Source of the DNA: an uncultured Gemmatimonadales bacterium
GTDB taxonomy: Bacteria; Gemmatimonadota; Gemmatimonadetes; Gemmatimonadales; GWC2-71-9
Reading direction: 5' to 3'
Length of the DNA stretch: 64,000 nucleotides
Assembly (NCBI GenBank): GCA_963695185.1
Contig: CAVOGH010000003.1
Span: 270,499-334,498, forward strand
Shown: one piece after another, positions 3,247 to 17,802 of the stretch
Position numbering within the stretch: the stretch's first letter is position 1
How the letters are laid out: each line of letters begins with the position of its first letter
Program-made: the position numbers and the translations under genes
The notes under the pieces: model-generated
The model's database searches: none
What the model saw: only the letters and a program-made list of their open reading frames with translations
Told to the model about the DNA's origin: nothing

Positions 3247-3289
3247 TTTCACGCACCTGCTCCACCGGACCGACGGCCCCGAGGACCCC

Positions 3290-3589: not shown

Positions 3590-3713
3590 TTGCACCCCGA
3601 GCACCCCATGTCCGACTTCGCCAATCCATCCGGTAGCGCTGACGCCCAAGGCCCAGGCCCGCGCCTACACCACCGCGATCCTCGCCGCACTCGGCGACCG
3701 GGACCCGCTCCAG

Positions 3714-4154: not shown

Positions 4155-4375
4155 ACGATTCGGCTCTTCGGTCTCAGGGCGAGGGCGGAGGACGGAGGAC
4201 GGTTACCCACGTGAAGTTGACGTCGCCGGCCGGGCGAGGGCGGAGGACGGTTACCCGGCCGCGTGGGGTTGGCGGGGCATGGCCACGCGGCCGGGAACCG
4301 TTCGATGCCCGAGCCGACTCGCAATAGCTGAATCACCAGGTCATTGAAGTGCCGAATACCCAAAGGAGCTCCACC

Positions 4376-4861
4376 ATGGACCCCCGTCTCGCACCACTCG
4401 CCGAGATGCTCCGGCTCAACGATCGCCTGTTCCACAACTGCCTGGCCGATCTCTCCGACCAGAAGGCCCGGGTACGCCCCACCGACGGCACCAACTGCGC
4501 CGCCTTTGTCGCCGCGCACCTGGTGGACTCCCGCTACTACCTGCTCAACGTCCTGGGCACCAAGGACACCACCCCGCTCACCGGCGCCGAGGGGGGCTTC
4601 AACAACATCAACAAGGTGAGCAGCTATCCCTCGCTCGCCGAGATCCGCACGGCGTGGACCGACGCGGGGAAAGCCCTCGCGCAGCGGCTCGGCAAGCTGA
4701 CCAAGGCCCAGCTCGATGCCCCGCTCGATCCCGGCTTCCCGATCGAGAACAAGAGCATGCTGGGCGTGCTGGTCTTCCTGGTGCAGCACGAGGGCTACCA
4801 CCTGGGCCAGCTGGGCCTGCTCCGCAAGCACGCCGGGCTGCCGGCGATGGCGTATGACTAG
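4376..4861 (+). CDS. DinB-superfamily protein (second paralogue type)
   Basis: AAGGAG RBS at 4362-4367, 8 nt before ATG 4376. Motifs ..AAHLVDSRYYL.. and ..LVQHEGYHLGQLGLL.. are typical of DinB/DUF664-like proteins. Confidence 0.7.
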   Translation: MDPRLAPLAEMLRLNDRLFHNCLADLSDQKARVRPTDGTNCAAFVAAHLVDSRYYLLNVLGTKDTTPLTGAEGGFNNINKVSSYPSLAEIRTAWTDAGKALAQRLGKLTKAQLDAPLDPGFPIENKSMLGVLVFLVQHEGYHLGQLGLLRKHAGLPAMAYD

Positions 4862-4862
4862 G

Positions 4863-4935
4863 CGGTTGGGCGGTTCGTTCTCAGGGCCTTGTCGCGGCTC
4901 GCCTGGGTGGGTCCAATGTCGGGGCGAATTGGGAG
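4863..4935. repeat. Octamer-array element, subfamily B (GGCGGTTGGGCGGTTCG..TCTCAGGGC)
   Basis: Starts directly after the TAG of the DinB gene. It shares the TAG-GCGGTTGGG..TCTCAGGGC layout with 4152-4180 and 14364-14400. It overlaps the 3' end of the convergent HTH gene. Confidence 0.45.
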
Positions 4936-5228
4936 ACCCTCGTCTCACCAAAGGGGAATCGTGCCGTGATGACGAGTTCCCCACCCATCGCCTCGATATA
5001 GCGACGCAGGGTGCTCACGAACACGTCGGAGCGCTGTTCGATCTGGGCAATGCCGGATTGCGTGAGACCACTGCTCTCCGCAAGCTGTTCCTGCGTCAAA
5101 GTGAGTGCGCGCCGTAGCGCCTGCAGGGGCATTTCCTCCAGGAGCTGGCGCGTCAGGATCTCGGAGCGCCCCCGGGACTCGGCGGGCATGCGTGCGACGA
5201 GATCACGAAACTTCTTTGTCTTGGGCAT
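4881..5228 (-). CDS. XRE-family helix-turn-helix protein (antitoxin-like)
   Basis: Central HTH LTQEQLAESSGLTQSGIAQIEQ. Its ATG overlaps the stop of an upstream toxin remnant (TAATG), the classic toxin-antitoxin arrangement. Confidence 0.65.
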   Translation of the reverse strand: MPKTKKFRDLVARMPAESRGRSEILTRQLLEEMPLQALRRALTLTQEQLAESSGLTQSGIAQIEQRSDVFVSTLRRYIEAMGGELVITARFPFGETRVSQFAPTLDPPRRAATRP

Positions 5229-5371
5229 TATATGAGCCCTTCCTTCCGTAGTTCAGCGAGATGCCCGTCAAACAGCTCTTCGGCCCGAGGGACGTTCGCG
5301 TCATACCAGCTATCATCGCCGGTCTTGTTCCCCTGAGCAGAAGGATCGCCATTCGACTTCGTAATATTACG
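5228..5371 (-). pseudogene. RelE/ParE (Gp49-like) toxin remnant, C-terminal third only
   Basis: 47 codons ..GNKTGDDSWYDANVPRAEELFDGHLAELRKEGLI* resemble toxin C-termini of this family. An in-frame TGA lies at 5372-5374, there is no start codon, and the local sequence is AT-richer. Confidence 0.5.
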
Positions 5372-5426
5372 TCAAGCTAATATGTTGCTCCCCGAGAAAG
5401 GCCTCCCCGCTGGTCATCATCCTCTT

Positions 5427-5457
5427 CTTGGCCTCTTTAATCTGCGGTGTATCTTCG
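5427..5457 (+). promoter_or_regulatory. Conserved promoter with direct-repeat operator, copy 2 (TTGGCC-N16-TATCTT; ATCTGCGGTGTATCTTCGG)
   Basis: Same geometry as copy 1: -35 at 5427-5432, -10 at 5449-5454, motif at 5439-5457, then GGTCAC and an AGGAG RBS. Confidence 0.5.
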
Positions 5458-5476
5458 GGTCACAGGAGATGACTTC

Positions 5477-5716
5477 ATGTTCCAACTGACCCGGGATGAG
5501 GCTGCAAACTTGAAGTCACAATTTGTGACCTCAAGTTTGGCGACTCAGGCTGAGGCGGCAATCTTGAAATCACAAACTGTGATCTCAAGTTCTGGCTGGG
5601 GTGGCCAGCGGTTCTCGCCCCGCTATCGGGTTCCGGTGATGAGGGCCGGGGACCCGACCGTTCACCGGCGCTCCCCGGTGAGACGCGCGAGAGCGTCCCT
5701 GGCCTCCGCCACATAG
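5477..5716 (+). pseudogene. ORF6N/KilA-N-like domain protein remnant
   Basis: MFQLTRDEAANLKSQFVTSS..LKSQTVISSSGWGGQRF matches the conserved C-terminal half of ORF6N-domain proteins (FMFQLT.EE..NL[RK]SQ[IF]VTS..WGG.R). The N-terminal half is absent and the LKSQxVxS unit is duplicated. The 3' end runs into the convergent gene. Confidence 0.45.
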
Positions 5717-6681
5717 GGCTGGAGCTCTGGATCGGCGCGCCGCCAGGAATCCACCACATACTGGTAGGACCGGATGGCCGTCTCGCGGTCGCCGAGCCGC
5801 TCGGCGATCCGCCCCTGCTCGAGCCGCGCGAGCACGGCGATCGGGCCGAGAACCATCGTCAGCAGGTGGTCGAGCTGGCTAGCGGCCAGCGTCTCCTGCC
5901 CGCGCGCCGCCAAGAGAGTCGCCTGCTTCAGGACATAGAAGCAGTCGATGCTACTGCACGCGCTGGTGGGCACCGCGCCGAATTGGCGGAGGGCCTCAGT
6001 GGTGTCACCGAGGGCGAGCGCCAGATACGCCGCCGACGCCTGCTCGAGGTAACCGGCCCGGAGCCGGCGCACCGGATCTCCGGCCCGCGCGCCGGCATCC
6101 CGCATGCGGCGACCAAAGAGCGCGAGCGCCGCGGTGTCTTGCTGCATTGTCCACCACCCGAGGCCCTTGAGGCTGCGGGAGGAGCCGTCGCCAAAAGCGA
6201 AACCGGGCTGCAGTGAGGGGGCGAAAGCGCGGGCCGCCTCGTCCCGAGGTATCGCGCGGAGCAGCGCCAGGTCACGGAAGGGGTCCTGGAACCAGGACCA
6301 GGGCGAGAGGGTGGGATCGGCGAGGAGCGCCCGGTTGGTGCGATAGGCCTCCGCCAGATGGCCCCGTCTCGCGAGCGCCATCGCCACGAACTGCAGGCGC
6401 ATCAGGGAATCCACCACCCAGGGAGTGGATTCCCCCTCGCGCATCCGCCGCGCCGCCAGCCGCCGGAACAGCATCACGGCGGTTTCCGCAGAGTCCGGAA
6501 TGTAGATGAATACCTCGATCGCCGCGGTGAACAGCACGCCTGCCGCGGCCGCATCGAGTTGTCCGGCCAGGTCCTTCTCTCGCCGGTCCTCCGGAGTCAG
6601 CAGGAGGCGGCTGGTGAGTCCCAGGGCGGAGCTGGTCACGCCGGGCAGGGCCAGGCGAGTTACCGCTCGCGCGTAGGGCAA
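5662..6681 (-). CDS. Helical-repeat (TPR-like) protein, hypothetical
   Basis: 339-aa Ala/Leu-rich all-helical ORF. It resembles the TPR-like C-terminal regions of multidomain regulators, but no catalytic domain is seen. Its 5' end abuts the pseudogene at 6700, so it may be truncated. Confidence 0.45.
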   Translation of the reverse strand: MPYARAVTRLALPGVTSSALGLTSRLLLTPEDRREKDLAGQLDAAAAGVLFTAAIEVFIYIPDSAETAVMLFRRLAARRMREGESTPWVVDSLMRLQFVAMALARRGHLAEAYRTNRALLADPTLSPWSWFQDPFRDLALLRAIPRDEAARAFAPSLQPGFAFGDGSSRSLKGLGWWTMQQDTAALALFGRRMRDAGARAGDPVRRLRAGYLEQASAAYLALALGDTTEALRQFGAVPTSACSSIDCFYVLKQATLLAARGQETLAASQLDHLLTMVLGPIAVLARLEQGRIAERLGDRETAIRSYQYVVDSWRRADPELQPYVAEARDALARLTGERR

Positions 6682-6699
6682 GGCGCGTTCCGGCCCGCC

Positions 6700-7604
6700 C
6701 AGCTGCGCCGGAGGCCCGGGCGGTCATTGACGCGGGCAGGAGCCTGGTGGACGTCTCGGATGAACTCTCCGCAACGCTCGAGCTGCTCGACCTCCACGCC
6801 GACGCCGCTCGCGCCGGCATCACCATCGCGGTCGGCCTCGGCGTCGGCCCGGGCATCACCAACATCCTCGCGCGGTACGGGGCGGACCGCCGGGACCGGG
6901 TCGAGGAGGTGCACACCTCCTGGATCAGGCGCGCCTCGGACATGGGCGGACGGGCCCTGGCCATGCACCTGCTCTACTCGAACGCCCACCGCGCGTTCGA
7001 CTTCGCGGACGCCGCGATGCGTGAAGTCCGGCCCTTCGAGGATGGCCGGGAGACCATCGACGACCCGGTCCTGGGTCCCGTCGAGGTGACCCAGATCGGC
7101 CACTCGAACCCTCGCCCTGTCGCGCTACCTCCCGGGACATCCGGCATGCGGACGACGAGGCCACGTATCCTCCCGATGCAGGTGAACGACCTCCTCAAGG
7201 AGCTGGGGCGCGTTGCCCGGTCGGGGCATCCGGTCATGGTCGAAGGACGGCCGGTGGACCGGATGGCCTTCGCGGCCAGCTCTGTGCAGCAGAGCGCCGC
7301 GCCTGGCGGGAGAATCGCAGACCGGCGCGCTGCGCACCGAGGTGCGGGGGGAACTGGCCGGCCGGCCGGTGCGCCTCGTCGATGCCTCCGCGGCCGGATC
7401 GGCATCGGGACCGGAGTGCCGGCCTCGATCGGCGCGATGCTGCTCGCCATCGGCAAGATCGACAAGCCCGGCGTCTGGCCGCCGGAAGCCTGCATCGACC
7501 TCGGAGTGGTTCCTGTCCGCCATCGAGCGGCGGCACATCGGCAATATCGAGGAACAGGTGTTCGACTGGGACCGGCCGGGGAGCCCAGCGCCGTGTCGAG
7601 ATAG
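6700..7604 (+). pseudogene. Saccharopine dehydrogenase-family paralogue, 5'-truncated and multiply frameshifted
   Basis: Homologous to residues ~135-420 of the 237-1394 gene. Compare VDVSDELSATLELLD..GITNILARYGADR.. with VDVSDDFAATLELLD..GVTNILARYGADR... Homologous segments alternate between two frames (e.g. ESQTGALRTEVRGELAGRPVRLV and EWFLSAIERRHIGNIEEQVFDW lie in the 7213 frame). The Rossmann N-terminus is missing. Confidence 0.8.
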
Positions 7605-7615
7605 ACCAGCCATCC

Positions 7616-7646
7616 TTGCCCTCCCTGATCTTCGGTATATCTTCGG
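7616..7646 (+). promoter_or_regulatory. Conserved promoter with direct-repeat operator, copy 3 (TTGCCC-N16-TATCTT; ATCTTCGGTATATCTTCGG)
   Basis: -35 at 7616-7621, -10 at 7638-7643, motif at 7628-7646. It sits ~150 nt upstream of the rSAM-imuB genes. The downstream leader is homologous to the copy-1 leader and small ORF. Confidence 0.6.
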
Positions 7647-7795
7647 GTCACACGCCACCCGAGGACCCGATGCCGCCTCCCCCAACTCCATCTCGTCCAG
7701 GCCCAGCATCAGGCCGCTAACTCGTTGATCGGCAACCAGATCCATACGTGTACGCGGGGTCGGCAGGACGCCGACTCCACCGAGGCCCGGCCCAC

Positions 7796-8884
7796 ATGAC
7801 AAGGCCCGCCCAGCTCCCCCTGCTCGAGGCCCCGGCCCAGGCCCCGCTGCCGGTGCTCGACACCCGTGCCCGCGGCGCCTCGTTCCACGAGATCCCGGTC
7901 AAGGCGATCCTCAACTCCCCCGCCTCCACCGGCATGGGGTTCTGGTCGCTCAATCCGTACGTGGGCTGCGAGTTCGGCTGCACCTACTGCTACGCTCGTG
8001 AGACCCATAAGTGGGTAGTCGAGCGAGAGACGGCGAAAGGGACGGCTTCCGGCGCGGAGGGTAGCCCTGAGATCGAGTCGCCGAGTCGCCGAGTCGCCGA
8101 GTCGCCCAGCGACGCCTTCGAACGCCGCATCCTGGTCAAGACCTCCGCCGCGGCGGTGCTCAAACGCACCCTCTTTCCCGCCAAGCTCGACGGCTGCACC
8201 CTGGTCATCGGCACCGCCACCGATCCCTACCAGCCCGCCGAACGGCAGTTCCGCCTGACTCGGCAGATCCTCGAGGCGCTGCTCAGCTGGAAGGGGCTGG
8301 CGCTGGGGATCATCACCAAGTCGCCGCTCATCATCCGCGACATCGACCTGCTGGTGCAGCTCAAGGAACGGCACGACCTGTCGGTCAACATCTCCATCGC
8401 CTCCACCGACGCCGCCCTGCTCCGGCGCATCGAGGCCCGCTCGCCGGCGCCCCACGCCCGGCTCCGGGCCCTGTCCCGGCTCACCGATCAAGGCATTCAC
8501 GCGGGGCTGCTCATCGCCCCGGTCCTCCCCGGCATCACCGACAGCCGGGAATCACTGGCCGCCCTCATGGCGGCGGGGAAGGCAGCGGGCGCCCGCTACG
8601 CGGTCGGGTCGGCGCTCCGGCTCGGACCCGCAACCCGGTCCCGCTTCCTTCCTCACCTTGCCCACGAATTCCCGGAGCTGGCCGGCCGCTACGCGCGGCG
8701 CTACGAAAACCGCCAGATGCCGGGACGCGACTATACCGAGGCGCTCTCCGCCCGGATCCGCTCGCTGCAGGCGGAGTACGGCTTCCCCATCCCCGACAGC
8801 CGCCACCGCGAACGGCTGCTCAAGGGCCAGGCGCGGGAAGACGCGGTGCCCGAGGCGGCGGCGCAGTGGTCGCTGGGGTTGTGA
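7796..8884 (+). CDS. Radical SAM protein (SplB/COG1533-like, DNA-repair-photolyase family)
   Basis: CEFGCTYC (CxxxCxxC) cluster motif near the N-terminus, followed by ..ILVKTSAAAVLKR.. and ..ITKSPLIIRDIDLL.. typical of this family. ATG 7796 was chosen (MTRPAQLPLL). It carries an in-frame repeat insertion at 8014-8110. Confidence 0.75.
   Translation: MTRPAQLPLLEAPAQAPLPVLDTRARGASFHEIPVKAILNSPASTGMGFWSLNPYVGCEFGCTYCYARETHKWVVERETAKGTASGAEGSPEIESPSRRVAESPSDAFERRILVKTSAAAVLKRTLFPAKLDGCTLVIGTATDPYQPAERQFRLTRQILEALLSWKGLALGIITKSPLIIRDIDLLVQLKERHDLSVNISIASTDAALLRRIEARSPAPHARLRALSRLTDQGIHAGLLIAPVLPGITDSRESLAALMAAGKAAGARYAVGSALRLGPATRSRFLPHLAHEFPELAGRYARRYENRQMPGRDYTEALSARIRSLQAEYGFPIPDSRHRERLLKGQAREDAVPEAAAQWSLGL
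8014..8110. repeat. Octamer-array element, subfamily A2, in-frame inside the rSAM gene
   Basis: CCGGCGCGGAGGGTAGCCCTGAGATCGAGTCGCCGAGTCGCCGAGTCGCCGAGTCGCCC aligns with 15110-15166 in dnaE2. It encodes ..SPEIESPSRRVAESPSRRVAESPS.. in a loop right after the Fe-S motif. Confidence 0.7.
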
Positions 8885-9022
8885 GCCCCGCCCTGGAGCT
8901 ACAGGCTGCGAAGCCGTGGGCCCCTCCGGGGGCGACCGTTTTGGCAAGGCTGCCTGATATGTGCCGCCAGCCAACGGCAGCGCCCCCGTCGGGGCCCACC
9001 GGCTCCGCAGCCCGCACACACC

Positions 9023-10426
9023 ATGCAGCCACGCCACGTCCTGTTCGTTGACCCGCCGGCCTTCTGCACCACCCTCGAAGGCCTGGTCGCGCCCGCGCTC
9101 CGGGATCGGCCCCTCGTCGTCGCCGCCCCCGGCGCCGACCGCGCCACCGTGCTCGCCCTCTCCCCCGAAGCCCGCGCCGCCGGGATCACCCCCGGCATGG
9201 CGGTGAACCAGGCCAGGAAACGCTGCCCCGATCTCATCGTCCGCCCCCCCAACCCCCGGCTCTACGCCCGCGCCTCCCGCGCCCTGCACCAGATCCTGGC
9301 CCGCTACGCGCCCATCATCGAACCCCACGGCTGGGGCCACGCCTTCCTCGACGTGACCGGCACCGAACGGCTGCTGGGAAAATCGGTCGATATCGCCTGG
9401 AAGATCCACCAGGAATCGCGCGAGCGGCTGCACCTGCCGCTCGCCGTCGGCGTCGCCCAGAACAAGCTGGTGAGTCAGGCGGCGTCGGAGGTGGTCAAGG
9501 GACGACTCGGCGACTCGGCGACTCGGCGACTCGATCTGCTCGAGGTGACTCCGGGGTCCGAAGCAACGTTCCTCGCACCGGAAAGCGTGGCACTGCTCCC
9601 CGACCTCGAGCCCCGCATGCGGGAGCGGCTGGACGACTACCAGCTCGACATCATCGGAGAGATCCAGGCCATCACCGACGACGAGCTGGCCCGGGTGTTC
9701 GGGCTCCCCGGCCGCACCCTCGGCGCCCACGCCCGCGGCATCGACCCCCGGCCGGTGCTGCCGGCGGCGGTCAAGGCGGAGTTCCGCGTCACCCACACCC
9801 TCGGCAACGACAGCAACGACATCGCCCTGCTGCACCGGGTGCTCCGCCACCTGACCGAACGGCTGGGCGCCCGGCTCCGCGCCCGCCACCTCACCGCCCG
9901 ACGGCTCACGGTGCAGATCGCCTACGTGGACTACGCCACCGCCCGTCGCAGCCTGGCGCTGGCCCCCGCCGCCCTCGACGTGGAGCTGCTCGACGCCGCC
10001 CGCCGAGGCCTGGCCCTGGCGCAGCAGCGCACCGTGGCGCTCCGGGCACTGAGCGTGACGGTGGATCGGTTCGTGGAGGAGGATTGTCAGTTGGAGTTGT
10101 TCGGCGGCTCGGCGGCTCGATGGTTCGGCGACTCGGCGACTCGATGGTTCGGCGACTCGGCGACTCGATGGTTCGGCGACTCGGCGACTCGGCGACTCGG
10201 CGACTCGCTAAGTGAAGGGCTCGGCGCGGACCATAGGCTTGCTCTCTCCGAGGAGAGTACCAGTGCTTCATCGTCGGCACCGAACCTCACCTTACGCGAG
10301 TCGCCGAGTCGCCGAGTCGCCGAGCCGCCCAACAACGCGTCCATGCGCCACATCGCCCTCCAGCGTGCCCTCGACCGCATCCGCACCCGCTGGGGGGCCC
10401 GCACCATCGGGGCGGCGACGAGATAG
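9023..10426 (+). CDS. imuB: Y-family DNA polymerase homologue lacking catalytic carboxylates (ImuB-like)
   Basis: Y-family fold motifs are present (VLFVDPPAFCTTLE; IEPHGWGHAFLDVTG; AVGVAQNKLVSQAAS). The position of the SxDEAxLD catalytic Asp-Glu reads GH. QLELF and a C-terminal LDRIRTRWG tail are present. It follows the rSAM gene and lies in the same locus as dnaE2. Two in-frame repeat insertions. Confidence 0.8.
   Translation: MQPRHVLFVDPPAFCTTLEGLVAPALRDRPLVVAAPGADRATVLALSPEARAAGITPGMAVNQARKRCPDLIVRPPNPRLYARASRALHQILARYAPIIEPHGWGHAFLDVTGTERLLGKSVDIAWKIHQESRERLHLPLAVGVAQNKLVSQAASEVVKGRLGDSATRRLDLLEVTPGSEATFLAPESVALLPDLEPRMRERLDDYQLDIIGEIQAITDDELARVFGLPGRTLGAHARGIDPRPVLPAAVKAEFRVTHTLGNDSNDIALLHRVLRHLTERLGARLRARHLTARRLTVQIAYVDYATARRSLALAPAALDVELLDAARRGLALAQQRTVALRALSVTVDRFVEEDCQLELFGGSAARWFGDSATRWFGDSATRWFGDSATRRLGDSLSEGLGADHRLALSEESTSASSSAPNLTLRESPSRRVAEPPNNASMRHIALQRALDRIRTRWGARTIGAATR
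9500..9535. repeat. Short GGCGACTC octamer array, in-frame in imuB
   Basis: GACGACTCGGCGACTCGGCGACTCGGCGACTCGAT encodes ..GRLGDSATRRLD.. between conserved Y-family blocks. Confidence 0.65.
10096..10336. repeat. MITE-like palindromic element, subfamily A1, in-frame in the imuB 3' region, with 3 x 24-bp tandem units
   Basis: TIRs GTTGTTCGGCGGCTCGGCGGCTCG / CGAGTCGCCGAGCCGCCCAACAAC. TCGGCGACTCGATGGTTCGGCGAC is repeated 3x (SATRWFGD x3). The core matches 3454-3589 in reverse complement. The reading frame stays open and the native C-terminus resumes after it. Confidence 0.8.
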
Positions 10427-10472
10427 GACCGATCAGGAACCCGGCTTCACGGCGACACCCGCTCCGCCGGAG

Positions 10473-10862
10473 TCACGCCTCGGCATCGAGACCGTCGGGG
10501 TCCTGCCCCCTCACATACAGGACGGTTGGCCTCGGCTTGACGGTCGGGGACATGATCTCGAGGTACGCCTGTGGATTGATGCCCAGCTCCTGCTCCATCG
10601 GCCCGAAGAGCTTGGCGAAGCCCGGGCTGTCCTCCGGGATCGCAATGACCCCGTACTTGAGGTTCAGGAGCTCGACCAGCAGCACCACCTGGGTGCGAGT
10701 GCCCAGGTCCAGCTTGTACGCCGCAACCTTGCTGACCACCACCCAGGCCACCGCGCGGGTACGATTGCGCACGGTGAGGGTAAAGCCGGTCGCGTCGGCG
10801 GAGATCGTCGGCAGCGGAGGGTTCGGGCCTCGGCCCAGCAGCCGCTCAAGCCATGGCATCAC
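10473..10862 (-). CDS. Hypothetical protein
   Basis: 129-aa ORF with ordinary composition on the strand opposite imuB. No family recognised. Confidence 0.4.
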   Translation of the reverse strand: MMPWLERLLGRGPNPPLPTISADATGFTLTVRNRTRAVAWVVVSKVAAYKLDLGTRTQVVLLVELLNLKYGVIAIPEDSPGFAKLFGPMEQELGINPQAYLEIMSPTVKPRPTVLYVRGQDPDGLDAEA

Positions 10863-10910
10863 GGGAGCCCCCGGGGGTCATCGGTGTCGCACCGCCGCAA
10901 CCGGAATGCC

Positions 10911-11282
10911 TCACACGTGCTGGTCCACCAGGATGGGGTTGCCGTCGGGGTCCAGCGCGGTGAAGCTGGCGGGCCCCGTGGTGGTCTCGTCGGCCTCGGT
11001 GGTGAGCTTCACGCCCTTCGCCTTGAGCTGCCGCTGCAGCTCACGGACGTCGGTGAAGCCGGGGACCAGCTTCGCGTCCTGGTCCCAGCCGGGATTGAAG
11101 GTCAGGATGTTCTTGTCGAACATCCCCTGGAAGAGGCCGATGATATGGTCGCCGTTCTTGAGGATCAGCCACTTCTGGGCGGCATTGCCGCCGAAGACAG
11201 TGAAACCGAACTTCTCGTAGAAGGCCTTGGACGCCGCGATATCCTTGACGGCCAGGCTGATGGAAAACGCGCCGAGTTGCAT
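10911..11282 (-). CDS. VOC/glyoxalase-family protein
   Basis: Internal ATG at 11282 gives a 123-aa protein, [40 protein letters not shown], typical of the glyoxalase/bleomycin-resistance fold. The longer track ORF (to 12083) is an Arg/Pro-rich extension. Confidence 0.7.
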
Positions 11283-11335
11283 GTCGAGTCTCCGGGTGAA
11301 AAGAAGAGGTGCCCGCCTGATCGAGGGCGGGCCGG

Positions 11336-11872
11336 CTACGTGGCGGCGAGGACCTCGGGCTTTCGCTTCCGGCTCAGCAGCCCCGCCGACACCAGCGCAA
11401 ACAGCAGTCCCACCGGCAGCGGCTCGAGAAACGTCAGCGAGATGTTCACCAGCGGATTCTTGTACATCTCCGCGAACTCCGCCATCTCCTGCTTCTTCTC
11501 GGCGAGCTGCGCCTCCGTGGCGCCGGACGCTGCCTCCTTCTCCAGGGCGTAGGCCGAGTATTTCTCCAGGTAGTCGGGAGCGATCTTGCGGTAGACCACC
11601 TGCCAGGTAGCCACGTAACAGACGCACCCGATCAGCATGATCAGGCCACCCACCTGGAAGGCTCGGCCGAACGACACGTTGCCACCCGCCACGTTGTCGC
11701 GGTAGCTCTTCACCCCGACATACACCATCAGGAAGGCGATCACCATCGTGGTGTAGCCGATGATGAGGCCCTTGTCGAAGCCGATCTGGTCGTGGAACGG
11801 GATGGTGAGGAGCATCATCGCCGACAGGATGGCGCCGGCAATCAGTCCGAAGGTCAGCACGATCTTCCGCAT
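11336..11872 (-). CDS. DUF4199-like membrane protein
   Basis: 178 aa with four TM helices and the central SYRDN..GG.(I/V)SF motif typical of DUF4199. Confidence 0.6.
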
Positions 11873-12096
11873 GGCAGCTCCCAGGAGGTTGAGGACGGCC
11901 GATACTACTGCCGGAACGGGCTCCGCGCGTCACCCGAAAGGGTGATTCGGGGGAATTGGCAGGGAAATCATACGAACGGGGGACACAAAACGACCGCAGT
12001 GACCGCCGCCAGGGCTCGGCGCCCGAGACCGGGAGAGGGCGCCGGAGAAGGGGAAAACGGAAACGAGTGGCAGCACGAGGCATCGCAGGCGACCGA

Positions 12097-12186
12097 GACC
12101 GGGGGAGGGTCGGAGGGCGCGTAGGTGCGAGACGGGGACTCGCCCGGCCACCCGCACCTCCAGCGCCTGGAGACCCTCCTCCGGGC
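12097..12186. repeat. Long imperfect palindrome, family C (intergenic copy)
   Basis: GACCGGGGGAGGGTCGGAGGGCGCGTAGGTGCGAGACGG..CCCGCACCTCCAGCGCCTGGAGACCCTCC. The reverse complement of 17190-17265 inside dnaE2 is near-identical over ~75 bp. Confidence 0.75.
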
Positions 12187-12219
12187 GAGGGCGCCGGAGA
12201 AGAGAGGGGAGGACGACCC

Positions 12220-12666
12220 TCAGGGGATGAGCCGCAGTTCCTTGCCCAGCTGCACCGCCTGCGTCCGCCGCCTGGCGCCCAGTTTGTCGAACACTCGGCT
12301 CGAATGGGTCTTGACCGTGTTTTCGCTCACCGACACCCGCTCGGCGATCTCCTTGTTGCTCAGGCCTTCGGCGATCAGCGCCAGGATCTCCAGCTCGCGT
12401 GGCGTGATGCCGAGCGACTCCAGCCTGGCCTCGTCCCGGACAAAGGTGGCCGGCGCCGGCACCAGCACCTCCCGCACCACCACCGTTTCGGCGCGCCGAG
12501 TGAGGCGGAGGCCCAGCCAGATGCCCAGCGCGGCGAACACCGCGGCCACCAGCCCGCCGTAGATCTCCACCGAGTGCTGCACCACCAGCCAGCGGTACTC
12601 GATGAGCCGGAGCCCGGCGATCAGCACCCCGGCGAGGAGTCCGAAGAGGAGCACATGTCGGCGCAT
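12220..12666 (-). CDS. Membrane-anchored LuxR-family HTH transcriptional regulator
   Basis: ATG at 12666 ([19 protein letters not shown]..). Two to three TM helices are followed by the C-terminal LuxR/Ger[48 protein letters not shown]. Confidence 0.75.
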
Positions 12667-12712
12667 GCCCAAGTCTAAGAGCACCTGGCGGAGGGCGGAA
12701 CGGCGCGGCCCG

Positions 12713-13693
12713 CTACCATGTGAGGACGATTTTCCCGAACACCTCGTCGCGCTCCATGACGCCGTGGGCCTCGGCGACGTCGGCAAAGGGCGCGGTGGCG
12801 CCGACGACGGGGCGGAGGCGCCGCGTGCCGCCATCGCCGAATCCCGGCAGCACCTGCGCGCTGAAGGCCGCCACCAGCTCGATGCGCTCTTCCAGCGTCC
12901 GGGTCCGCATCACGCTGCCGATGACCTCCAGCCGCTTGCGGAGAATCGGTTCGAGGCTCAGCTCGGCGGTCGGGCCCTGGAGAAAACCGAGCAGCACCAG
13001 CCGGCCGCGCGGGGCCAGCGCCGCGAGGTTGCCGGCGAAGGCGGGGCCGCCCAGGACGTCGATGATCACATCGAATTCGGCGACTCGGCGACTCGGCGAC
13101 TCGGCGACTCGGCTGCCGAGTTCGAATACTTCGTCGAGCCCGAGCTCCCGGGCGCGTTCGAGCTTGGCGGGCGTCCGGGAGGTGCCCGCCACCGTGGCGC
13201 CGAGCCACTTGGCGAGCTGCACCGCCGCGGTGCCGACGCCGCTGCCGACGGCATGAATCAGCACCCGCTCGCCTGACTTGAGCCTGCCGCGGGTGACCAG
13301 CGCATCCCATGCCGTCAAGAACACCTCGGGGATGGCGGCGGCCTCCGCCAGCTCCATGCCCGGCGGCACCGCCAGCGCCTCGTCCTCGTGCACCACCACG
13401 TATTCGGCGTGGGCGCCGCCGCCCACCAGGCCCATGACCCGGTCCCTGGCGCGCCACCGGGTCACGCCCGACCCCGTCTTCTTCACCACACCCGCATACT
13501 CGAGCCCCGGAATGTCCGCCGGCCAGCCGGATGGCGCGGGATAGCGGCCCTTTCGCTGCAGGATGTCGGCGCGATTCAGGCCCGCGGCCTCAACCCGCAC
13601 CAGGATCTGGTGCGCTGCCGCCTTCGGGGTCGGGACTTCACGGAGTTGCAGGACTTCGGGACCGCCCGCGGCGGTGTTCACAATGGCGCGCAT
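12713..13693 (-). CDS. NADPH:quinone oxidoreductase (zeta-crystallin-like MDR family)
   Basis: MRAIV..GGPEVLQL.EVP.P..GQ(H)ILVRVEAAGLNRADILQRKGRYP..; GSGVGTAAVQLAK nucleotide-binding motif; C-terminal FGKIVLTW. Contains an in-frame octamer array. Confidence 0.8.
   Translation of the reverse strand: MRAIVNTAAGGPEVLQLREVPTPKAAAHQILVRVEAAGLNRADILQRKGRYPAPSGWPADIPGLEYAGVVKKTGSGVTRWRARDRVMGLVGGGAHAEYVVVHEDEALAVPPGMELAEAAAIPEVFLTAWDALVTRGRLKSGERVLIHAVGSGVGTAAVQLAKWLGATVAGTSRTPAKLERARELGLDEVFELGSRVAESPSRRVAEFDVIIDVLGGPAFAGNLAALAPRGRLVLLGFLQGPTAELSLEPILRKRLEVIGSVMRTRTLEERIELVAAFSAQVLPGFGDGGTRRLRPVVGATAPFADVAEAHGVMERDEVFGKIVLTW
13071..13126. repeat. Short hairpin-flanked GGCGACTC array, in-frame in the quinone oxidoreductase gene
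   Basis: TCGAATTCGG-(CGACTCGG)x4-CTGCCGAGTTCGAA encodes ..GSRVAESPSRRVAEF.. on the minus strand, between conserved blocks. Confidence 0.65.
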
Positions 13694-13754
13694 GGGCTGG
13701 TAAGGTATCGCCGGACGCCGGACTTGCGCCCTGCGGGCCCAGGCCGTAGCATAC

Positions 13755-13773
13755 CCGAAGAAATACCGAAGCT
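13755..13773 (-). promoter_or_regulatory. Direct-repeat operator motif, copy 4 (AGCTTCGGTATTTCTTCGG on the minus strand)
   Basis: One mismatch per half-site relative to copies 1-3. It is centred in the 138-bp divergent region between the qor-like gene (start 13693) and tag-dnaE2 (start 13832). No copy of the TTGNCC -35 element is present. Confidence 0.5.
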
Positions 13774-13831
13774 AGAAGGGCTGCCGGGGACCCAGACCGG
13801 CCACACCCCTCACCCTCCATCCTGCGCCCGC

Positions 13832-14363
13832 ATGTCCAGCTACTGCGATATCGCCCCCGGGCACGAATGGCACGGCCCCTACCACGACCGGGAGTACGGC
13901 GTCCCGCTCCGGGAGGACGACGAGCTGTTCGAGCGGCTGATCCTGGAGATCAACCAGGCCGGCCTGTCGTGGCTCACCATCCTCAAGAAAGCGGGAGGGC
14001 TTCCGCCGAGCCTATCACGGCTTCGAGGTGGCGCGGGTGGCGCGCTACGGGGCCCGGGACCGGGCTCGGCTGCTCAAGGACGCCGGGATCATCCGCAACC
14101 GGCTCAAGGTGGAGGCGGCGGTGGCCAACGCGAAGACCGTTCTCTCGCTCCGGAAGAGCCACGGCAGCTTTCATGGCTGGATCGAGGCGCATCACCCGCG
14201 GAGCAAGGGGGAGTGGGTGAAGCTGTTCAAGGGGACGTTCCGGTTCACCGGCGGGGAGATCGTGGGCGAGTTCCTGATGAGCATCGGGGTGCTGCCGGGC
14301 GCGCACCGGGAGTCGTGCCCGGCGTACGCGCGGATCCGGCGGCTCAAGCCGATGTGGATGTAG
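13832..14363 (+). CDS. tag: DNA-3-methyladenine glycosylase I (Tag), interrupted by a 1-nt insertion in this assembly
   Basis: MSSYCDIAPGHEWHGPYHDREYGVP..ELFERLILEINQAGLSWLTILKK, then a shift to ..FEVARVARYGARDRARLLKDAGIIRNRLKVEAAVANA..FTGGEIVGEFLMSIG. Removing one A from AAA 13988-13990 restores ILKKREGFRRAYHGFEV. Confidence 0.8.
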
Positions 14364-14369
14364 GCGTAT

Positions 14370-14448
14370 AGGCGGTTGGGTGGTTGGATCTCAAGGCGAC
14401 CATCCGCGCGGAACACTGAGTTCACACACCAACCGTCTAACCGCCTGT
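14370..14448. repeat. MITE-like element, subfamily B, between tag and dnaE2
   Basis: TIRs AGGCGGTTGGGTGGTTGG / CCAACCGTCTAACCGCCT, with a central TCTCAAGGCGACC core. It starts a few nt after the tag TAG and ends 6 nt before the dnaE2 ATG. Confidence 0.65.
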
Positions 14449-14454
14449 CCGCCC

Positions 14455-17400
14455 ATGTTCACCCACCTCCACGTTCACAGCTGGTTCTCCATGGGAGAGG
14501 GTGTCTCGAGTCCCGAGGCGCTGGCCTCGGCCGCGGTGCGGCGGGGGTTCGGCGCGCTGGCCTGCACCGACACCAACGGGGTGTACGGCGCGGTGGAGTT
14601 CCAGCAGGCGGCCGAGGCCCACGGGCTCAAGCCGATCCTCGGCGCGCACCTGGTGCACGGGACCGAGGAGGCGGTGGCGCTGGCGACAGACGAGCGGGGC
14701 TGGGGCGCGCTCTGCCGGGCGATCACGGCGATTCATTGGGTGGAGGGACGGACGGGTAGACGGACGGACGGGCGGGCGAACGGAGCGACGGGCCGCCGGA
14801 CCGTCCGACCGTCCGACTACCTCTCCACCCTCCTCGCCGCCGACCGCGACGGCCTGCTGCTCCTCTCCCGCGATGCGACGCTGCTGGAGCGGGTGGCCGA
14901 TCTCTCGGGGACGCGGGATCTCTACGCCGAACTCCGGCCCGGCAAGGAGCGCCACGCGGTGGGCCGGGCGGCCCGACGGCTGGGGATTTCGCCGGTGGTG
15001 ACCAACGCGGTGATGTTCGCCAACCCCGAGGAGCACGCGCTGCACCGGCTCCGGGTGGCGATCGGCGACTCGGCGACTCGGCGACTCGGCGATTCGTTCG
15101 CAAGGCCGGGGTCCGGCGCGGAGGGTTACGGTGAGATCGAGGCGCCGAAGCGCCGAGTCGCCGAGCCGACCTCCTGGCTCCGCCCCGGCGCCGACCTCGC
15201 CCGCCACTTCCCCGACTGTCCCGAGGCGATCGGCCGCACCATGGAGCTGGCGGAGCGGTGCGGCTACCGCATTCCCATCGGCCAGCGCACCGTGGCGCCG
15301 AGGATCGCGGCGGCGGAGGAGTCGTTCGCGCGGCTCCGGGCGCTGGCGTACGAGGGCGCGGCCCGGCGCTACGGCACGGTGGCGCCGCTCACCCGGGACC
15401 GGATCGAGCACGAGCTGGCGATCATCGCCCAGAAGAACTTCGCCGACTACTTCCTGGTGGTGCACGATATCGTCCGCCACGGCCCCACCCACTGCGGCCG
15501 GGGCTCGGTGGCCAACTCCATCGTGAGCTACTGTCTGGGCATCACCCACGTGGATCCGCTGGGCGCGGGGCTCCTGTTCGAGCGGTTCCTCAATCCCGAG
15601 CGGAAGGACCCGCCCGACATCGACCTCGACTTTCCCTGGGACGAGCGCGACCAGGTGCTGGCCTGGGTGTTCCAGAAGTATCCCCTGCCCCGCGCGGCGA
15701 TGGTGGCCAACCACAACTGCTTCCGGCTCCGGGGCGCGCTCCGGGAGGTGGCCAAGGTGCACGGCCGCCCGCCGGGAGAGATCCGCGAACTCACCCGCCG
15801 CTTCCCCTGGTTCATGGCGGATGAATCCATGGAAGAGGTCATCGCGCACCACCCCAACTTCAAGGGCCTGGAATTGCCGGCGGTCTGGCAGGACCTGATG
15901 CGGCTGGCGCAGCCGCTGGTGGGGGTGCCCCGGCACCTGTCGCTGCATCCCGGCGGAGTGGTGATCGTGCCGACGGCGCTGACCGACTACGTCCCCATCG
16001 AGCCGGCGGCCAAGCAGCTGGACGGCCATCCCGACCTCACCGTGCCGGTGATCCAGTTCGAGAAGGACGGCACCGAGGACGCGGGGCTGGTGAAGATCGA
16101 CCTGCTGGGGAACCGCTCGCTGGCGGTGATCCGTGACGCGATCGCCGCGGTGGCGGTCAACACCGGCCGGCAGATCGACTACACCTCCGACGATCCCGAC
16201 GACGACGAGGCCACGCACGCGCTCTTCCGCACCGGCCAGACCATGGGCGTCTTCTACACCGAGAGCCCGGCCTCGCGGCTCCTGTGCGCCAAGTCCCGGG
16301 CCGACACCTTCGAGCTGCTGGTGCTCAACACCAGCATCATCCGGCCCGCCTCCAACCGCTACATCCGGGTGTACCTCGAACGGCTGCACGGCGCGCCCTA
16401 CGCGCCGCTCGACCCGTCGCTCCGGGATACCCTCGCCGAGACCTACGGGGTGATGGTCTACCAGGAGGACGTGGTCAATGTGTGCGCCACCTTTGCGGGG
16501 ATGTCGCTCGCCGCGGGCGACGGGCTCAGGAAGGCGCTCTCCAAGAAGCGGCCGGTCAAGGCGCTGGCGTCGTACGTGGAGGATTTCTTCGCCGGCGCCG
16601 CCCGGCTGGGCCGGGACCCGGAGATCGCCAGGCAGGTGTGGGAGATGGTCATGTCCTTTGCGGGCTACAGCTTCTGCAAGGGGCATTCGTGTTCCTATAT
16701 CAAGGTGGCGCAGCACTCCTGCTATCTCCGGGCCCACTACCCGGCGGAGTTCATGGCCGCGGTGCTGGCCAACGGCGGCGGGTTCTATCATCCCTTTGCG
16801 TATGTCTCCGAGGCGATGCGCATGGGGCTCACGGTGCGCCCGCCGGACGTGAATGCCAGCGAGTTCCGGACGACCGGCCGGGGGCGGGAGGTGCGGATCG
16901 GGTTCCAGTTCATCAAGGGGTTGTCGGGGGAGGCGGTCAGGCGGTTGGACGAGGCGACTCGCGGATTCCGGGATCTGGCTCACTTCCGAGTGGAGACCGG
17001 CATCGGGCGGGAGGACCTGCGGCTGCTCATCAAGGTGGGTGCGCTGGACTCGATTGCCCGGGGGATGACCCGGCCGATGCTGCTGTGGGCGGTGGACGCG
17101 GAGTCCCACGCGCCGCCGGCGCCGGCGCCGCTGCTCGACGCTTCGGAGTCGAGTGCTCCGAGCCGTCGAGGCGGGGAAGGGTCTCCGGGCGCTGGAGGTG
17201 CGGGAGCCCGGGTGGGTTCCCGTCTCGCACCTACGCGCCCTCCGACCCTCCCCCGCCTCGACGGCTCGCCTGCCCTCGTTTCTCCGCGGGCGGCAATCCA
17301 ACCGCCCAGCCGCCAAACCGCCCAACCGCCTCACGAATCACCCAATCGCCCAATCGCCCAATCGCCTGCACCTCCCCCCCTCCGCGACTACGACACCGCC

Positions 17401-17802
17401 CGTCGCCGCCGGATCGAGTACCAGCTGCTGGGTTTCACCACCGACTGCCACCCGATGTCGCTCTACCGGGCGGAGCTCAAGCGGTTCCGGATCGTGCCGA
17501 GCACCGAGCTGGGACAGCATGTGGGCCGCACGGTGCTGGCGGCGGGGATGCTCACCACCGCCAAGCCGGTGTCCACCGCCAGGGATGAGCCGATGGAGTT
17601 CGCCACGTTCGACGACGGCCTGGGCCTCATCGAGACGGTGCTCTTTCCCGACGTGTACCGGAAGCGGGCGCACGTGCTGTTCGACCAGGGGCCGTTCATC
17701 TTCCGGGGCAGGGTGGAGGAGGAATTCGGGGCGGTGACGCTCACGATCACCCATCTGGACCGGCTGGAGCGGATGCTGGAGAAGGTGGCCGGACGGCGGT
17801 AG
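14455..17802 (+). CDS. dnaE2: Error-prone DNA polymerase III alpha-subunit paralogue DnaE2
   Basis: ATG 14455 (MFTHLHVHSWFSMGEGVSSPEAL, PHP domain). Pol III alpha core motifs GRGSVANSIVSYCLGIT, DIDLDF, FEKDGTEDAGLVKIDLLGNRSL and C-terminal OB-fold region. Size (about 1,000 aa once the ~280 bp of repeat insertions at 15064-15166, 17160-17267 and 17294-17366 is discounted) and linkage to the imuB-like gene fit DnaE2 rather than DnaE1. Confidence 0.9.
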   Translation: MFTHLHVHSWFSMGEGVSSPEALASAAVRRGFGALACTDTNGVYGAVEFQQAAEAHGLKPILGAHLVHGTEEAVALATDERGWGALCRAITAIHWVEGRTGRRTDGRANGATGRRTVRPSDYLSTLLAADRDGLLLLSRDATLLERVADLSGTRDLYAELRPGKERHAVGRAARRLGISPVVTNAVMFANPEEHALHRLRVAIGDSATRRLGDSFARPGSGAEGYGEIEAPKRRVAEPTSWLRPGADLARHFPDCPEAIGRTMELAERCGYRIPIGQRTVAPRIAAAEESFARLRALAYEGAARRYGTVAPLTRDRIEHELAIIAQKNFADYFLVVHDIVRHGPTHCGRGSVANSIVSYCLGITHVDPLGAGLLFERFLNPERKDPPDIDLDFPWDERDQVLAWVFQKYPLPRAAMVANHNCFRLRGALREVAKVHGRPPGEIRELTRRFPWFMADESMEEVIAHHPNFKGLELPAVWQDLMRLAQPLVGVPRHLSLHPGGVVIVPTALTDYVPIEPAAKQLDGHPDLTVPVIQFEKDGTEDAGLVKIDLLGNRSLAVIRDAIAAVAVNTGRQIDYTSDDPDDDEATHALFRTGQTMGVFYTESPASRLLCAKSRADTFELLVLNTSIIRPASNRYIRVYLERLHGAPYAPLDPSLRDTLAETYGVMVYQEDVVNVCATFAGMSLAAGDGLRKALSKKRPVKALASYVEDFFAGAARLGRDPEIARQVWEMVMSFAGYSFCKGHSCSYIKVAQHSCYLRAHYPAEFMAAVLANGGGFYHPFAYVSEAMRMGLTVRPPDVNASEFRTTGRGREVRIGFQFIKGLSGEAVRRLDEATRGFRDLAHFRVETGIGREDLRLLIKVGALDSIARGMTRPMLLWAVDAESHAPPAPAPLLDASESSAPSRRGGEGSPGAGGAGARVGSRLAPTRPPTLPRLDGSPALVSPRAAIQPPSRQTAQPPHESPNRPIAQSPAPPPLRDYDTARRRRIEYQLLGFTTDCHPMSLYRAELKRFRIVPSTELGQHVGRTVLAAGMLTTAKPVSTARDEPMEFATFDDGLGLIETVLFPDVYRKRAHVLFDQGPFIFRGRVEEEFGAVTLTITHLDRLERMLEKVAGRR
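15064..15166. repeat. Palindromic octamer-array element, subfamily A2, in-frame in dnaE2
   Basis: GGCGACTCGGCGACTCGGCGACTCGGCGATTCG..CCGGCGCGGAGGGTTACGGTGAGATCGAGGCGCCGAAGCGCCGAGTCGCCGAGCC. The arms are inverted copies and the right half aligns with 8050-8108. It encodes GDSATRRLGDSFARPGSGAEGYGEIEAPKRRVAEP. Confidence 0.75.
17160..17267. repeat. 108-bp long palindrome, family C, in-frame in dnaE2
   Basis: A perfect 16-bp outer stem GAGCCGTCGAGGCGGG / CCCGCCTCGACGGCTC extends to ~50-bp imperfect arms. The inner part is near-identical (reverse complement) to 12097-12186. The length is 36 codons, encoding ..[35 protein letters not shown]... Confidence 0.8.
17294..17366. repeat. Octamer array, subfamily B (CCAATCGC/CCAACCGC units), in-frame in dnaE2
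   Basis: CAATCCAACCGCCCAGCCGCCAAACCGCCCAACCGCCTCACGAATCACCCAATCGCCCAATCGCCCAATCGCC is the complement-orientation version of the GGCGATTGGGCGATTGG arrays seen after stop codons. It encodes ..QPPSRQTAQPPHESPNRPIAQSPA... Confidence 0.7.

Follow-up and report, generated by a model that had tools for sequence, protein, structure and literature searches.

A putative SOS island in Gemmatimonadales linking a radical-SAM gene to an ImuA-less inactive polymerase-DnaE2 module

Background

Can a radical S-adenosylmethionine (radical-SAM) enzyme take the place of ImuA in a bacterial mutasome? The question is raised by a locus in a 64,000-nt stretch of DNA from an uncultured Gemmatimonadales bacterium (GenBank assembly GCA_963695185.1, contig CAVOGH010000003.1, positions 270,499 to 334,498 of the forward strand; the whole stretch is referred to as the window below), in which a SplB-like radical-SAM gene is followed by the gene of an inactivated Y-family DNA polymerase (iPolY) and, about 4 kb further on, by a tag-dnaE2 pair. 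A preliminary description of the locus had put the radical-SAM protein forward as third component of an ImuB/DnaE2 mutasome, which would be functionally new. The reading that we favour, and which we consider reasonably likely, is that the locus represents a Gemmatimonadales SOS island, made up of an ImuA-less iPolY-DnaE2(-RecA) module, a Tag-like glycosylase and a radical-SAM repair enzyme that is putatively tethered to the clamp. Such an island would be a lineage-specific physical merger of parts which in other bacteria share their regulation but are seldom linked, and on this reading the radical-SAM protein would be a co-induced, clamp-tethered repair enzyme beside the mutasome rather than a replacement for ImuA.

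Variants without ImuA were described in 2019, when inactive polymerases related to the PolY core and carrying a motif similar to the RecA N-terminus (RecA-NT) were found coupled to DnaE2, and RecA was proposed as the substitute for ImuA in these variants (Timinskas and Venclovas, PMC6511836). A 2026 survey names such systems DnaE2B-iPolY-RecA and finds DnaE2B in genomes without ImuA or ImuB (PMC12926913). The splB genes of COG1533 are LexA-regulated in many phyla, where they often share a regulon with PolY-DnaE operons (PMC4951493, PMC8565304), and gene neighbourhoods combining radical-SAM and ImuB-C genes have already been recorded (PMC3765255).

The ImuA-less mutasome is thus in itself ordinary, and the value of the locus lies in a testable function for a long-unexplained SOS gene family. 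That COG1533 SplB-like genes belong to LexA regulons, in phyla from Actinobacteria to Bacteroidetes, is an old loose end. One hypothesis for it, a lesion-reversal enzyme that clamps recruit to the sites where translesion polymerases work, can be put to the test because the radical-SAM gene is welded to the dead-PolY/DnaE2 module throughout one order, and because a clamp-type tail recurs in the family across phyla.

Results and discussion

The inactive polymerase and the absence of ImuA

The window has a G+C content of about 70%, and its genes were chosen by selection of open reading frames (ORFs) based on G+C at third codon positions (GC3) together with profile scans. The closest source-named relatives of its proteins come from Gemmatimonadales metagenome-assembled genomes (MAGs). 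The genes and motifs on which the argument rests are the following:

7796-8884, plus strand: radical-SAM gene, COG1533/SplB-like, 362 aa; alternative GTG start at 7748
7967-7990, plus strand: CEFGCTYC (CxxxCxxC) of the radical-SAM protein, residues 58-65
8864-8881, plus strand: QWSLGL, candidate beta-clamp-binding motif at the radical-SAM C-terminus
9023-10426, plus strand: iPolY gene, 467 aa, with IMS and IMS_C domains
9335-9340, plus strand: GH in place of DE in iPolY
10088-10105, plus strand: candidate clamp motif QLELFG, iPolY residues 356-361
10355-10411, plus strand: RecA-NT-like tail of iPolY, ALQRALDRIRTRWGARTIG
13832-14363, plus strand: tag, encoding a 3-methyladenine DNA glycosylase I-like protein, with a +1 frameshift at about 13986-13991
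14455-17802, plus strand: gene of the DnaE2-like C-family polymerase, 1115 aa; alternative GTG start at 14380
15613-15633, plus strand: PDIDLDF (catalytic) of the DnaE2-like protein
16093-16113, plus strand: KIDLLGN of the DnaE2-like protein

This layout agrees with the preliminary description, both in the SplB/COG1533-type radical-SAM gene, with its CEFGCTYC, in front of the Y-family gene and in the dnaE2 gene, which lies about 4 kb away beyond five opposite-strand genes and is paired with tag, the latter being frameshifted here.

The Y-family protein matches the Pfam models IMS (123.7 bits) and IMS_C (52.1 bits), so the fold is present. Alignment to solved Pol IV structures places G105-H106 at the position of the catalytic Asp-Glu pair (...EPHGWGHAFLDVTG versus ...EPxSxDEAYLDVT), which bears out the reported replacement of DE by GH. 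The GH pair is invariant in 19 homologues with 61-81% identity to the window protein, and the first catalytic Asp (D10) is kept. From these residues the protein is predicted to be catalytically dead. A candidate clamp motif follows the little finger, in which the Q is invariant and which reads QLELW/F, or close variants such as QMDL and QFEL, within the family.

The protein had also been called ImuB-like and not a working DinB. The loss of the catalytic pair is in keeping with the second half of that statement, whereas, as regards family membership, the likeness to ImuB did not hold up: the ImuB-C domain (Pfam DUF6504) gave no match even at E<=10, and at the same threshold phmmer searches of the window with the Agrobacterium and Burkholderia ImuB proteins were negative. 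Agrobacterium ImuB itself does match DUF6504, if only weakly and short of the cut-off (E 0.0043). The best NCBIfam matches of iPolY are Pol IV models, and a match to DUF4113 is weak. At the C-terminus, the block ALQxAxDRIRTRWGxRGV was aligned by hhalign to 37 RecA N-termini over 23 columns (P=7.8e-4), the RecA stretch concerned being the N-terminal helix-strand KALxxALxQIEKxFGKGSI, and the protein ends four residues past this motif. When a RecA-NT profile was run against 19 PolY proteins with hmmsearch, its best match fell on the C-terminal motif in about half of them. The protein appears to fit the class of ImuA-less inactive PolYs rather than ImuB, and since it has no ImuB-C domain and ends in a RecA-NT-like tail, RecA is the likelier third partner.

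ImuA, RecA and LexA were searched for with phmmer, using two ImuA proteins, E. coli RecA and one LexA as queries against the six-frame translation of the window (E<=10), and the search was extended to the homologous locus of 80 Gemmatimonadota species with 10 kb on either side (E<=1e-5). None of the three was found in the window, at the sensitivity that single-sequence queries afford, and neither these nor ImuB were found within +/-10 kb of the locus in the 80 species. The earlier remark that no RecA-fold ImuA is visible is therefore upheld, and for the surroundings of the locus in relatives as well. The same absence had been presented as non-canonical; it is no novelty, as ImuA-less iPolY-DnaE2 modules are published (PMC6511836, PMC12926913). 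A query with ImuB-C of Gemmatimonas aurantiaca gave 93 matches, mostly fragments, none of them on contigs with a radical-SAM-PolY locus; as a negative for co-occurrence this is weak, because the search missed the protein of G. aurantiaca itself. The named matches come from Gemmatimonadaceae, and the context of one of them (L087) is uninformative.

With the published DnaE2B-iPolY-RecA and other ImuA-less modules, which are often under LexA, the locus shares a dead Y-family polymerase that resembles DinB/PolY-core more than ImuB, a clamp motif and the lack of ImuB-C and ImuA; a C-terminal motif with weak likeness to RecA-NT, and a linked DnaE2 that probably falls outside the group associated with ImuA, may be further points in common. 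It differs from them in the upstream radical-SAM gene and in the tag gene directly before dnaE2, neither of which is mentioned for the modules in PMC6511836 or PMC12926913. With the canonical ImuA-ImuB-DnaE2 mutasome, for which a split arrangement is known too (Mycobacterium), it has in common the dead Y-family scaffold, the clamp motif, the error-prone C-family polymerase and, as predicted below, damage-inducibility, but ImuA and ImuB-C are lacking and the PolY escapes canonical ImuB queries. Among the matches listed, the only Gemmatimonadota genome in the 2019 supplementary tables is G. aurantiaca, with a canonical ImuA-ImuB1-DnaE2 system; as the window locus is ImuA-less, the phylum holds both systems.

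Two further cassettes invite comparison. The lexA-imuY-dnaE2 operon of Deinococcus deserti is LexA-controlled and is described without imuA in the operon (Dulermo et al. 2009, as summarised in PMC6300522); according to the same summary it mediates ultraviolet-induced mutagenesis experimentally, and its induction needs RecA (PMC6300522). It resembles the window locus in combining a Y-family protein with DnaE2 where no imuA is described, and differs in including lexA and in that the summary, as far as it describes the operon, reports no radical-SAM or tag gene there. The second is a lexA-DUF72-'hypothetical'-dnaE operon on a Desulfosarcina ovata plasmid (NZ_AP021877.1; L003, locus 5330-11105), where the 'hypothetical' gene encodes an inactive PolY in which GH likewise replaces DE, with a QRPLF motif and a RecA-NT-like tail like that of the window protein. 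The annotated start of this PolY seems too far downstream. A DUF72 gene was also observed near the cluster in the relative L002.

The DnaE2-like polymerase and tag

The polymerase aspartates of the DnaE2-like protein are intact, with PDIDLDF and KIDLLGN aligning to PDFDVDF and KFDFLGL of E. coli Pol III alpha. Its architecture is PHP-Pol3-HhH-OB; the alignment to Pol III alpha stops at the OB fold (residue ~1078 of 1160), and the tau-binding C-terminal domain of replicative DnaE is absent. The scores with the DnaE2 model NF004225 (573.1 bits, cut-off 939) and the DnaE model NF004226 (585.8 bits, cut-off 1002) are about equal and fall short of both cut-offs; both are lowered by the repeat inserts in the gene, which are treated below. 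The nearest annotated relative is a Desulfosarcina plasmid DnaE (42.5% identity, 738 bits), whereas two DnaE2A examples give 355-368 bits, and two canonical DnaE2 proteins (Agrobacterium, Burkholderia) are ~29-31% identical among the matches listed.

Three-frame translation located the break in tag to AAGAAAG near 13986-13991, which has one A too many. Without correction, the N-terminal fragment of the ORF still passes Pfam Adenine_glyco (47.6 versus a threshold of 25), and the repaired 176-aa protein, which reaches 121.6 bits with TIGR00624 (cut-off 232.5) over profile positions 12-114 of 179, would be a divergent Tag-like glycosylase. The gene is intact in the relatives L001 and L002. Across the 80 loci, frame switches within these genes were seen only in long-read MAGs and in none of the short-read assemblies, and 32 of the 43 switches are not near repeats, which is the pattern expected of consensus errors. 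Because such switches are many in long-read loci and absent from short-read ones, the frameshift in tag is probably a long-read assembly or consensus error and not the mark of a pseudogene.

The frameshift, together with the multiple 8-nt arrays inside the radical-SAM, PolY, oxidoreductase and DnaE2 genes, could also be taken to mean that the locus is decaying or artefactual and that the cluster is non-functional in this organism. We regard this as highly improbable. All other ORFs are intact with GC3 values of 0.86-0.89, catalytic and motif residues are conserved, the arrays keep the reading frame, and the frameshift itself amounts to one surplus A within a short run of A, of the kind just described.

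The radical-SAM protein and its C-terminal tail

The 362-aa radical-SAM product is identical to the database protein P0121 and matches Pfam Radical_SAM with 50.7 bits. Its closest families are Rv2578c (NF038135, 219.6 bits versus a cut-off of 430) and PA0069 (NF033668, 199.1 versus 360), and by these NCBI thresholds it is a member of neither. With the spore photoproduct lyase (SPL) model TIGR04070 it scores 17.8 bits, where the cut-off is 400, which rules out an SPL orthologue. The fold comparison that the preliminary description had proposed does return SPL (PDB 4FHC), a radical-SAM TIM-barrel enzyme acting on DNA, as the best PDB match (E ~1e-3, template modelling (TM) score ~0.4), although the matches are weak and the model mediocre; they are only suggestive, because the model is of modest quality (mean predicted local distance difference test (pLDDT) score 64.4) and leaves out the first 74 residues, among them the cluster loop.

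The alignment of the Gemmatimonadales radical-SAM proteins ends, past a variable linker, in EQWTLL or similar, which in the window protein reads AQWSLGL, and 52 of 67 Gemmatimonadales orthologues have conserved a Qxx[LIM][LIF] at the C-terminus. For comparison, E. coli Pol IV ends in QLVLGL. In the wider family, represented by 112 full-length proteins from clustering at 50% identity, the strict motif Q[LM]x[LF] followed by [LFW] or by x[LFW] was found in the last 30 residues of 37 representatives, as against 5 of 1139 other 30-residue windows, and on average 0.6 times when the tails were shuffled. A clamp-type tail is also present in annotated proteins of the Rv2578c family (...QESLF) and the PA0069 family (...QLDLFAGIV). 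The literature searched contains no paper that brings radical-SAM proteins and a clamp-binding motif together, and the beta-clamp-binding-like motif that appears to end the family would thus be new here. Because the tail is the protein's own, it suggests that the enzyme could be recruited to clamps by itself, which argues against a need for PolY.

The COG1533 SplB genes of the SOS response, such as M. tuberculosis Rv2578c, P. aeruginosa PA0069 and those of Verrucomicrobia and Bacteroidetes (PMC4951493, PMC8565304), belong, by best NCBIfam match, to the same family, are LexA-regulated and are, as is predicted here, co-regulated with PolY/DnaE2 cassettes. They differ in their setting: the four neighbourhoods checked are stand-alone, while the window gene heads a PolY cluster.

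Conservation of the gene order

Gene order was assessed in 80 species-representative genomes of Gemmatimonadota, of which 75 loci were informative for the radical-SAM gene and 54 for DnaE2. The radical-SAM gene lies <=1 kb upstream of PolY in 61 of the 75 and <=10 kb in 67, and DnaE2 is found <=10 kb downstream of PolY in 46 of the 54. The link between radical-SAM and PolY genes is real within this order, and the linkage with an imuB-like gene, on whose conservation in related genomes the preliminary proposal had hinged, is conserved.

A contiguous radical-SAM-PolY-tag-dnaE2 array without any intervening gene is kept in six species (L034, L036, L041, L046, L056, L076). Because of these, the 4-kb split seen in the window suggests a secondary insertion, the contiguous operon probably being the ancestral form. 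The oxidoreductase is the sole widely kept one of the five inserted genes (62 loci), and in L002 it alone intervenes. In a sub-clade of six species (L034, L036, L038, L041, L043, L046) the radical-SAM and PolY genes share 4 nt, the stop codon of the former running into the start of the latter, and the clamp-like tail is lost; tail loss and gene overlap are one evolutionary event. Where downstream sequence exists in this sub-clade, tag directly follows PolY and no oxidoreductase lies between the genes.

Linkage is not universal. Eight Gemmatimonadales loci have a PolY without an adjacent radical-SAM gene, and genes of the family stand alone in the four outside relatives checked, namely Tsukamurella (Rv2578c family), Legionella (PA0069 family), Streptomyces and Gemmatirosa, the last being a cultured member of Gemmatimonadaceae. 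Among the related loci the gap between radical-SAM and PolY genes is often 400-900 nt (e.g. L007-L016, L054-L064), which is long for an operon, with a median of 465 nt where the radical-SAM protein has the tail. On a Legionella adelaidensis plasmid (L090, locus 4194-6942), the PA0069-family gene is divergent from an adjacent gene for a PolX polymerase/3'-5' exonuclease.

These data bear directly on whether the mutasome has the radical-SAM protein as a genuine third subunit, one that would replace ImuA, be needed for induced mutagenesis and interact with DnaE2, the dead PolY or both. Its position directly upstream of PolY in 61 of 75 species speaks for such a role, yet the eight loci without an adjacent radical-SAM gene and the four stand-alone family members speak against it. 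ImuA was found neither in the window nor in the 80 loci, but the family has been reported among the SOS genes also where a canonical or split imuA-imuB-dnaE2 exists (M. tuberculosis Rv2578c, P. aeruginosa PA0069), and its radical-SAM TIM barrel is unlike the RecA fold of ImuA. The six species with the 4-nt overlap look as if PolY had recruited the radical-SAM protein upon loss of the clamp tail, whereas in most species that protein has its own clamp-binding-like tail. SplB-like radical-SAM genes have been seen beside ImuB-C genes before (PMC3765255), and an enrichment in 8-nt repeats is common to radical-SAM, PolY and DnaE2 genes while tag and oxidoreductase lack it; the PolY tail, on the other hand, resembles the RecA N-terminus, which published work reads as RecA replacing ImuA. 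Altogether we find the subunit role quite unlikely. What survives of the preliminary proposal is the conserved linkage; as regards a new third component, the RecA-NT-like tail points to RecA. Independent, co-induced action of the radical-SAM enzyme is likelier than a role as third mutasome component, since the family members in the four outside relatives stand alone and eight Gemmatimonadales loci keep PolY without it.

A candidate SOS box

The candidate operator reported for both halves of the locus was found at both, and two further sites were detected in the window:

7630-7648, plus strand: operator copy 1, CTTCGGTATWTCTTCGGGT / CTTCGGTATATCTTCGGGT, direct repeat TTCGG-N6-TTCGG; the radical-SAM ATG lies 148 nt downstream
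13753-13771, minus strand: operator copy 2, CTTCGGTATTTCTTCGGGT as read on that strand, halfway between the start codons of the divergent oxidoreductase and tag genes
3230-3248, plus strand: copy with 2 mismatches, upstream of DinB_2-family genes at 3573-4154 and 4328-4861
5442-5460: copy with 2 mismatches, preceding a short ORF (5447-5716) with a weak ORF6N/KilA-N-like match

The four 19-nt sites compare with 0.00 expected from 100 shuffles. The direct repeat has an 11-bp period, which is also that of the alphaproteobacterial LexA box GTTC-N7-GTTC. In most of the 80 loci the motif lies upstream of radical-SAM or PolY, and across them it precedes radical-SAM, PolY (where radical-SAM is absent or distant), tag-dnaE2 and DinB_2-family genes. 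The relative L001 has a 1-mismatch operator in the intergenic region between oxidoreductase and tag, as have further loci.

An exact-pattern scan of metagenome contigs placed TTCGGTRTATNTTCGG upstream of recA in 11 loci, at a distance of 26-27 nt in nine of them and of 36 nt and 165 nt in the others; the RecA N-termini at these loci match Gemmatimonas RecA and the contigs are high in GC. In four metagenome loci the same pattern lies 9-10 nt upstream of lexA, and it also precedes a RuvB-like ORF (N-terminus judged by eye) and further radical-SAM genes. Since it precedes Gemmatimonadota recA and lexA, TTCGG-N6-TTCGG is probably the SOS box of the clade, and its presence before recA, lexA and both halves of the locus makes it most likely that both halves are LexA-controlled. 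No paper describing the motif was found in the literature searched, and a candidate SOS box would allow the regulon of the poorly studied soil phylum Gemmatimonadota to be mapped.

Orphan operator sites in the loci were associated with DinB_2 genes, an insertion-sequence (IS) integrase and miscellaneous genes, and no regulator was found among them. Scans for promoter and terminator consensus sequences around both halves of the window locus found nothing. In ten loci (L049, L057, L062, L068, L072, L079, L082, L086, L032, L039) two opposite operator copies lie ~25 nt apart upstream of radical-SAM, and the full site may hold four TTCGG half-sites. The pattern was also observed before large ORFs in L114, L128, L134 and L144 (two of ~1035 aa, two cut by the contig end) with N-termini that by eye are of the RND/AcrB type, and before a sigma-70-like factor, likewise judged by eye, in a metagenome locus (L097); this hints at a wider regulon that includes efflux-pump-like and sigma-70-like genes.

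A possible mode of action

In the SOS island that we favour, DNA damage would relieve repression, presumably by LexA, at the TTCGG-N6-TTCGG boxes in front of radical-SAM-iPolY and tag-dnaE2. By analogy with ImuB and in line with the published computational work, the dead PolY could then serve as a scaffold, with QLELF as its contact to the beta clamp and the RecA-N-terminus-like tail as its contact to RecA, and bring the catalytically intact DnaE2 to the lesion for error-prone bypass. The C-terminal Qxx(L)(L/F) tail would recruit the radical-SAM enzyme to clamps on damaged DNA, where, in the manner of spore photoproduct lyase, it might use radical chemistry to reverse or process the lesion, while Tag, going by its family, would remove alkylated purines.

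A closer form of cooperation can be envisaged, in which the radical-SAM enzyme and iPolY-DnaE2 share the two pockets of one beta-clamp dimer at a stalled primer end, as on a toolbelt, error-free radical reversal (or conversion of the lesion to a bypassable form) being attempted first and DnaE2 bypass following upon failure, without a stable complex between them. Clamp-binding-type motifs on both the radical-SAM protein and iPolY, the conserved operon organisation under the same SOS box, and a nearest solved fold that belongs to a DNA-lesion-reversing radical-SAM enzyme would suit this arrangement. It is, however, a purely inferential one; clamp motifs are commonly carried by unrelated repair proteins that do not cooperate, and the linkage is confined to one order of one phylum. 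We consider it possible, though doubtful.

Several observations weigh against the reading of the locus as an island of independently acting, co-induced parts. The adjacency of radical-SAM and PolY is much tighter than membership of one regulon alone requires, and the gene overlap with tail loss in six species would fit a physical radical-SAM-PolY complex. The similarity of the iPolY tail to RecA is weak, and in hmmsearch with the RecA-NT profile the window protein scores -4.5 bits, which is below the shuffled sequences (up to 2.6). The radical-SAM structural model is modest (pLDDT 64.4) and its SPL fold matches are weak; its tail is a short linear motif, in which the second position of the Gemmatimonadales proteins (W/P/A) departs from QL[SD]LF. 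Finally, the repeat enrichment of radical-SAM, PolY and DnaE2, from which tag and oxidoreductase are exempt, hints at a shared constraint that the island reading leaves unaccounted for.

Tandem repeats of 8 nt

The repeats of the window are tandem copies of short units. Copies of the octamer GGCGACTC encode the repeated peptides GDSATRRL and SPSRRVAE, and CCAACCGC is the unit of the array in the DnaE2 linker. Several arrays lie inside the radical-SAM, PolY, oxidoreductase and DnaE2 genes, and in every array the reading frame is kept. All strong GGCGACTC copies of the 64-kb window are located between 3.4 and 15.2 kb. The positions of the arrays, all within the putative SOS cluster, are:

3459-3482: 8-nt array
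8074-8106: 8-nt array
9503-9533: 8-nt array
10099-10207: 8-nt array
10297-10329: 8-nt array
13077-13113: 8-nt array
15057-15096: 8-nt array
15138-15165: 8-nt array
17298-17366: 8-nt array

Counted as 8-nt arrays with at least 3 copies per kb across the 80 species, the densities are:

radical-SAM: 0.82 per kb
PolY: 0.59 per kb
DnaE2: 0.48 per kb
tag: 0.13 per kb
oxidoreductase: 0.09 per kb
all other DNA: 0.07 per kb

The species-specific arrays are thus 7-12 times denser in radical-SAM, PolY and DnaE2 than in tag, oxidoreductase or flanking sequence. The enrichment is the one observation that ties radical-SAM to PolY and DnaE2 specifically and not to the whole regulon. Tolerance of disordered linkers and selection for switchable genes are possibilities behind the repeats, of which the latter is unsupported by the frame-switch survey. 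The octamer GGCGACTC itself was rejected as a conserved element, as it is absent from 80 of 80 related loci and the units are species-specific. Phase variation by way of the arrays was likewise rejected: the frame switches, confined to long-read MAGs, lie in 32 of 43 cases away from arrays, and no natural OFF alleles were seen.

A more far-reaching proposal would combine these elements. In it, the COG1533 enzymes of the SOS response are beta-clamp-tethered lesion processors which in Gemmatimonadales have become an obligate partner of iPolY-DnaE2, the overlap sub-clade recruits the radical-SAM enzyme through PolY, and the species-specific repeats of the three genes result from a regime common to them, for instance one in which a mutagenic pathway that is costly is switched on and off at random. 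We think it unlikely.

Neighbouring genes

The five ORFs between the two halves of the locus, all with coding-like GC3, are:

10473-10862, minus strand: ORF without family match
10911-11282, minus strand: glyoxalase
11336-11872, minus strand: DUF4199 protein
12220-12666, minus strand: LuxR-type regulator
12713-13693, minus strand: PIG3-type quinone oxidoreductase

Just upstream of the locus, at 5662-7604, weak partial matches to the C-terminal part of saccharopine dehydrogenase occur in overlapping ORFs on both strands, and this region may be a disrupted or frameshifted saccharopine-dehydrogenase-like gene. An intact saccharopine-dehydrogenase-like paralogue is located at 93-1394.

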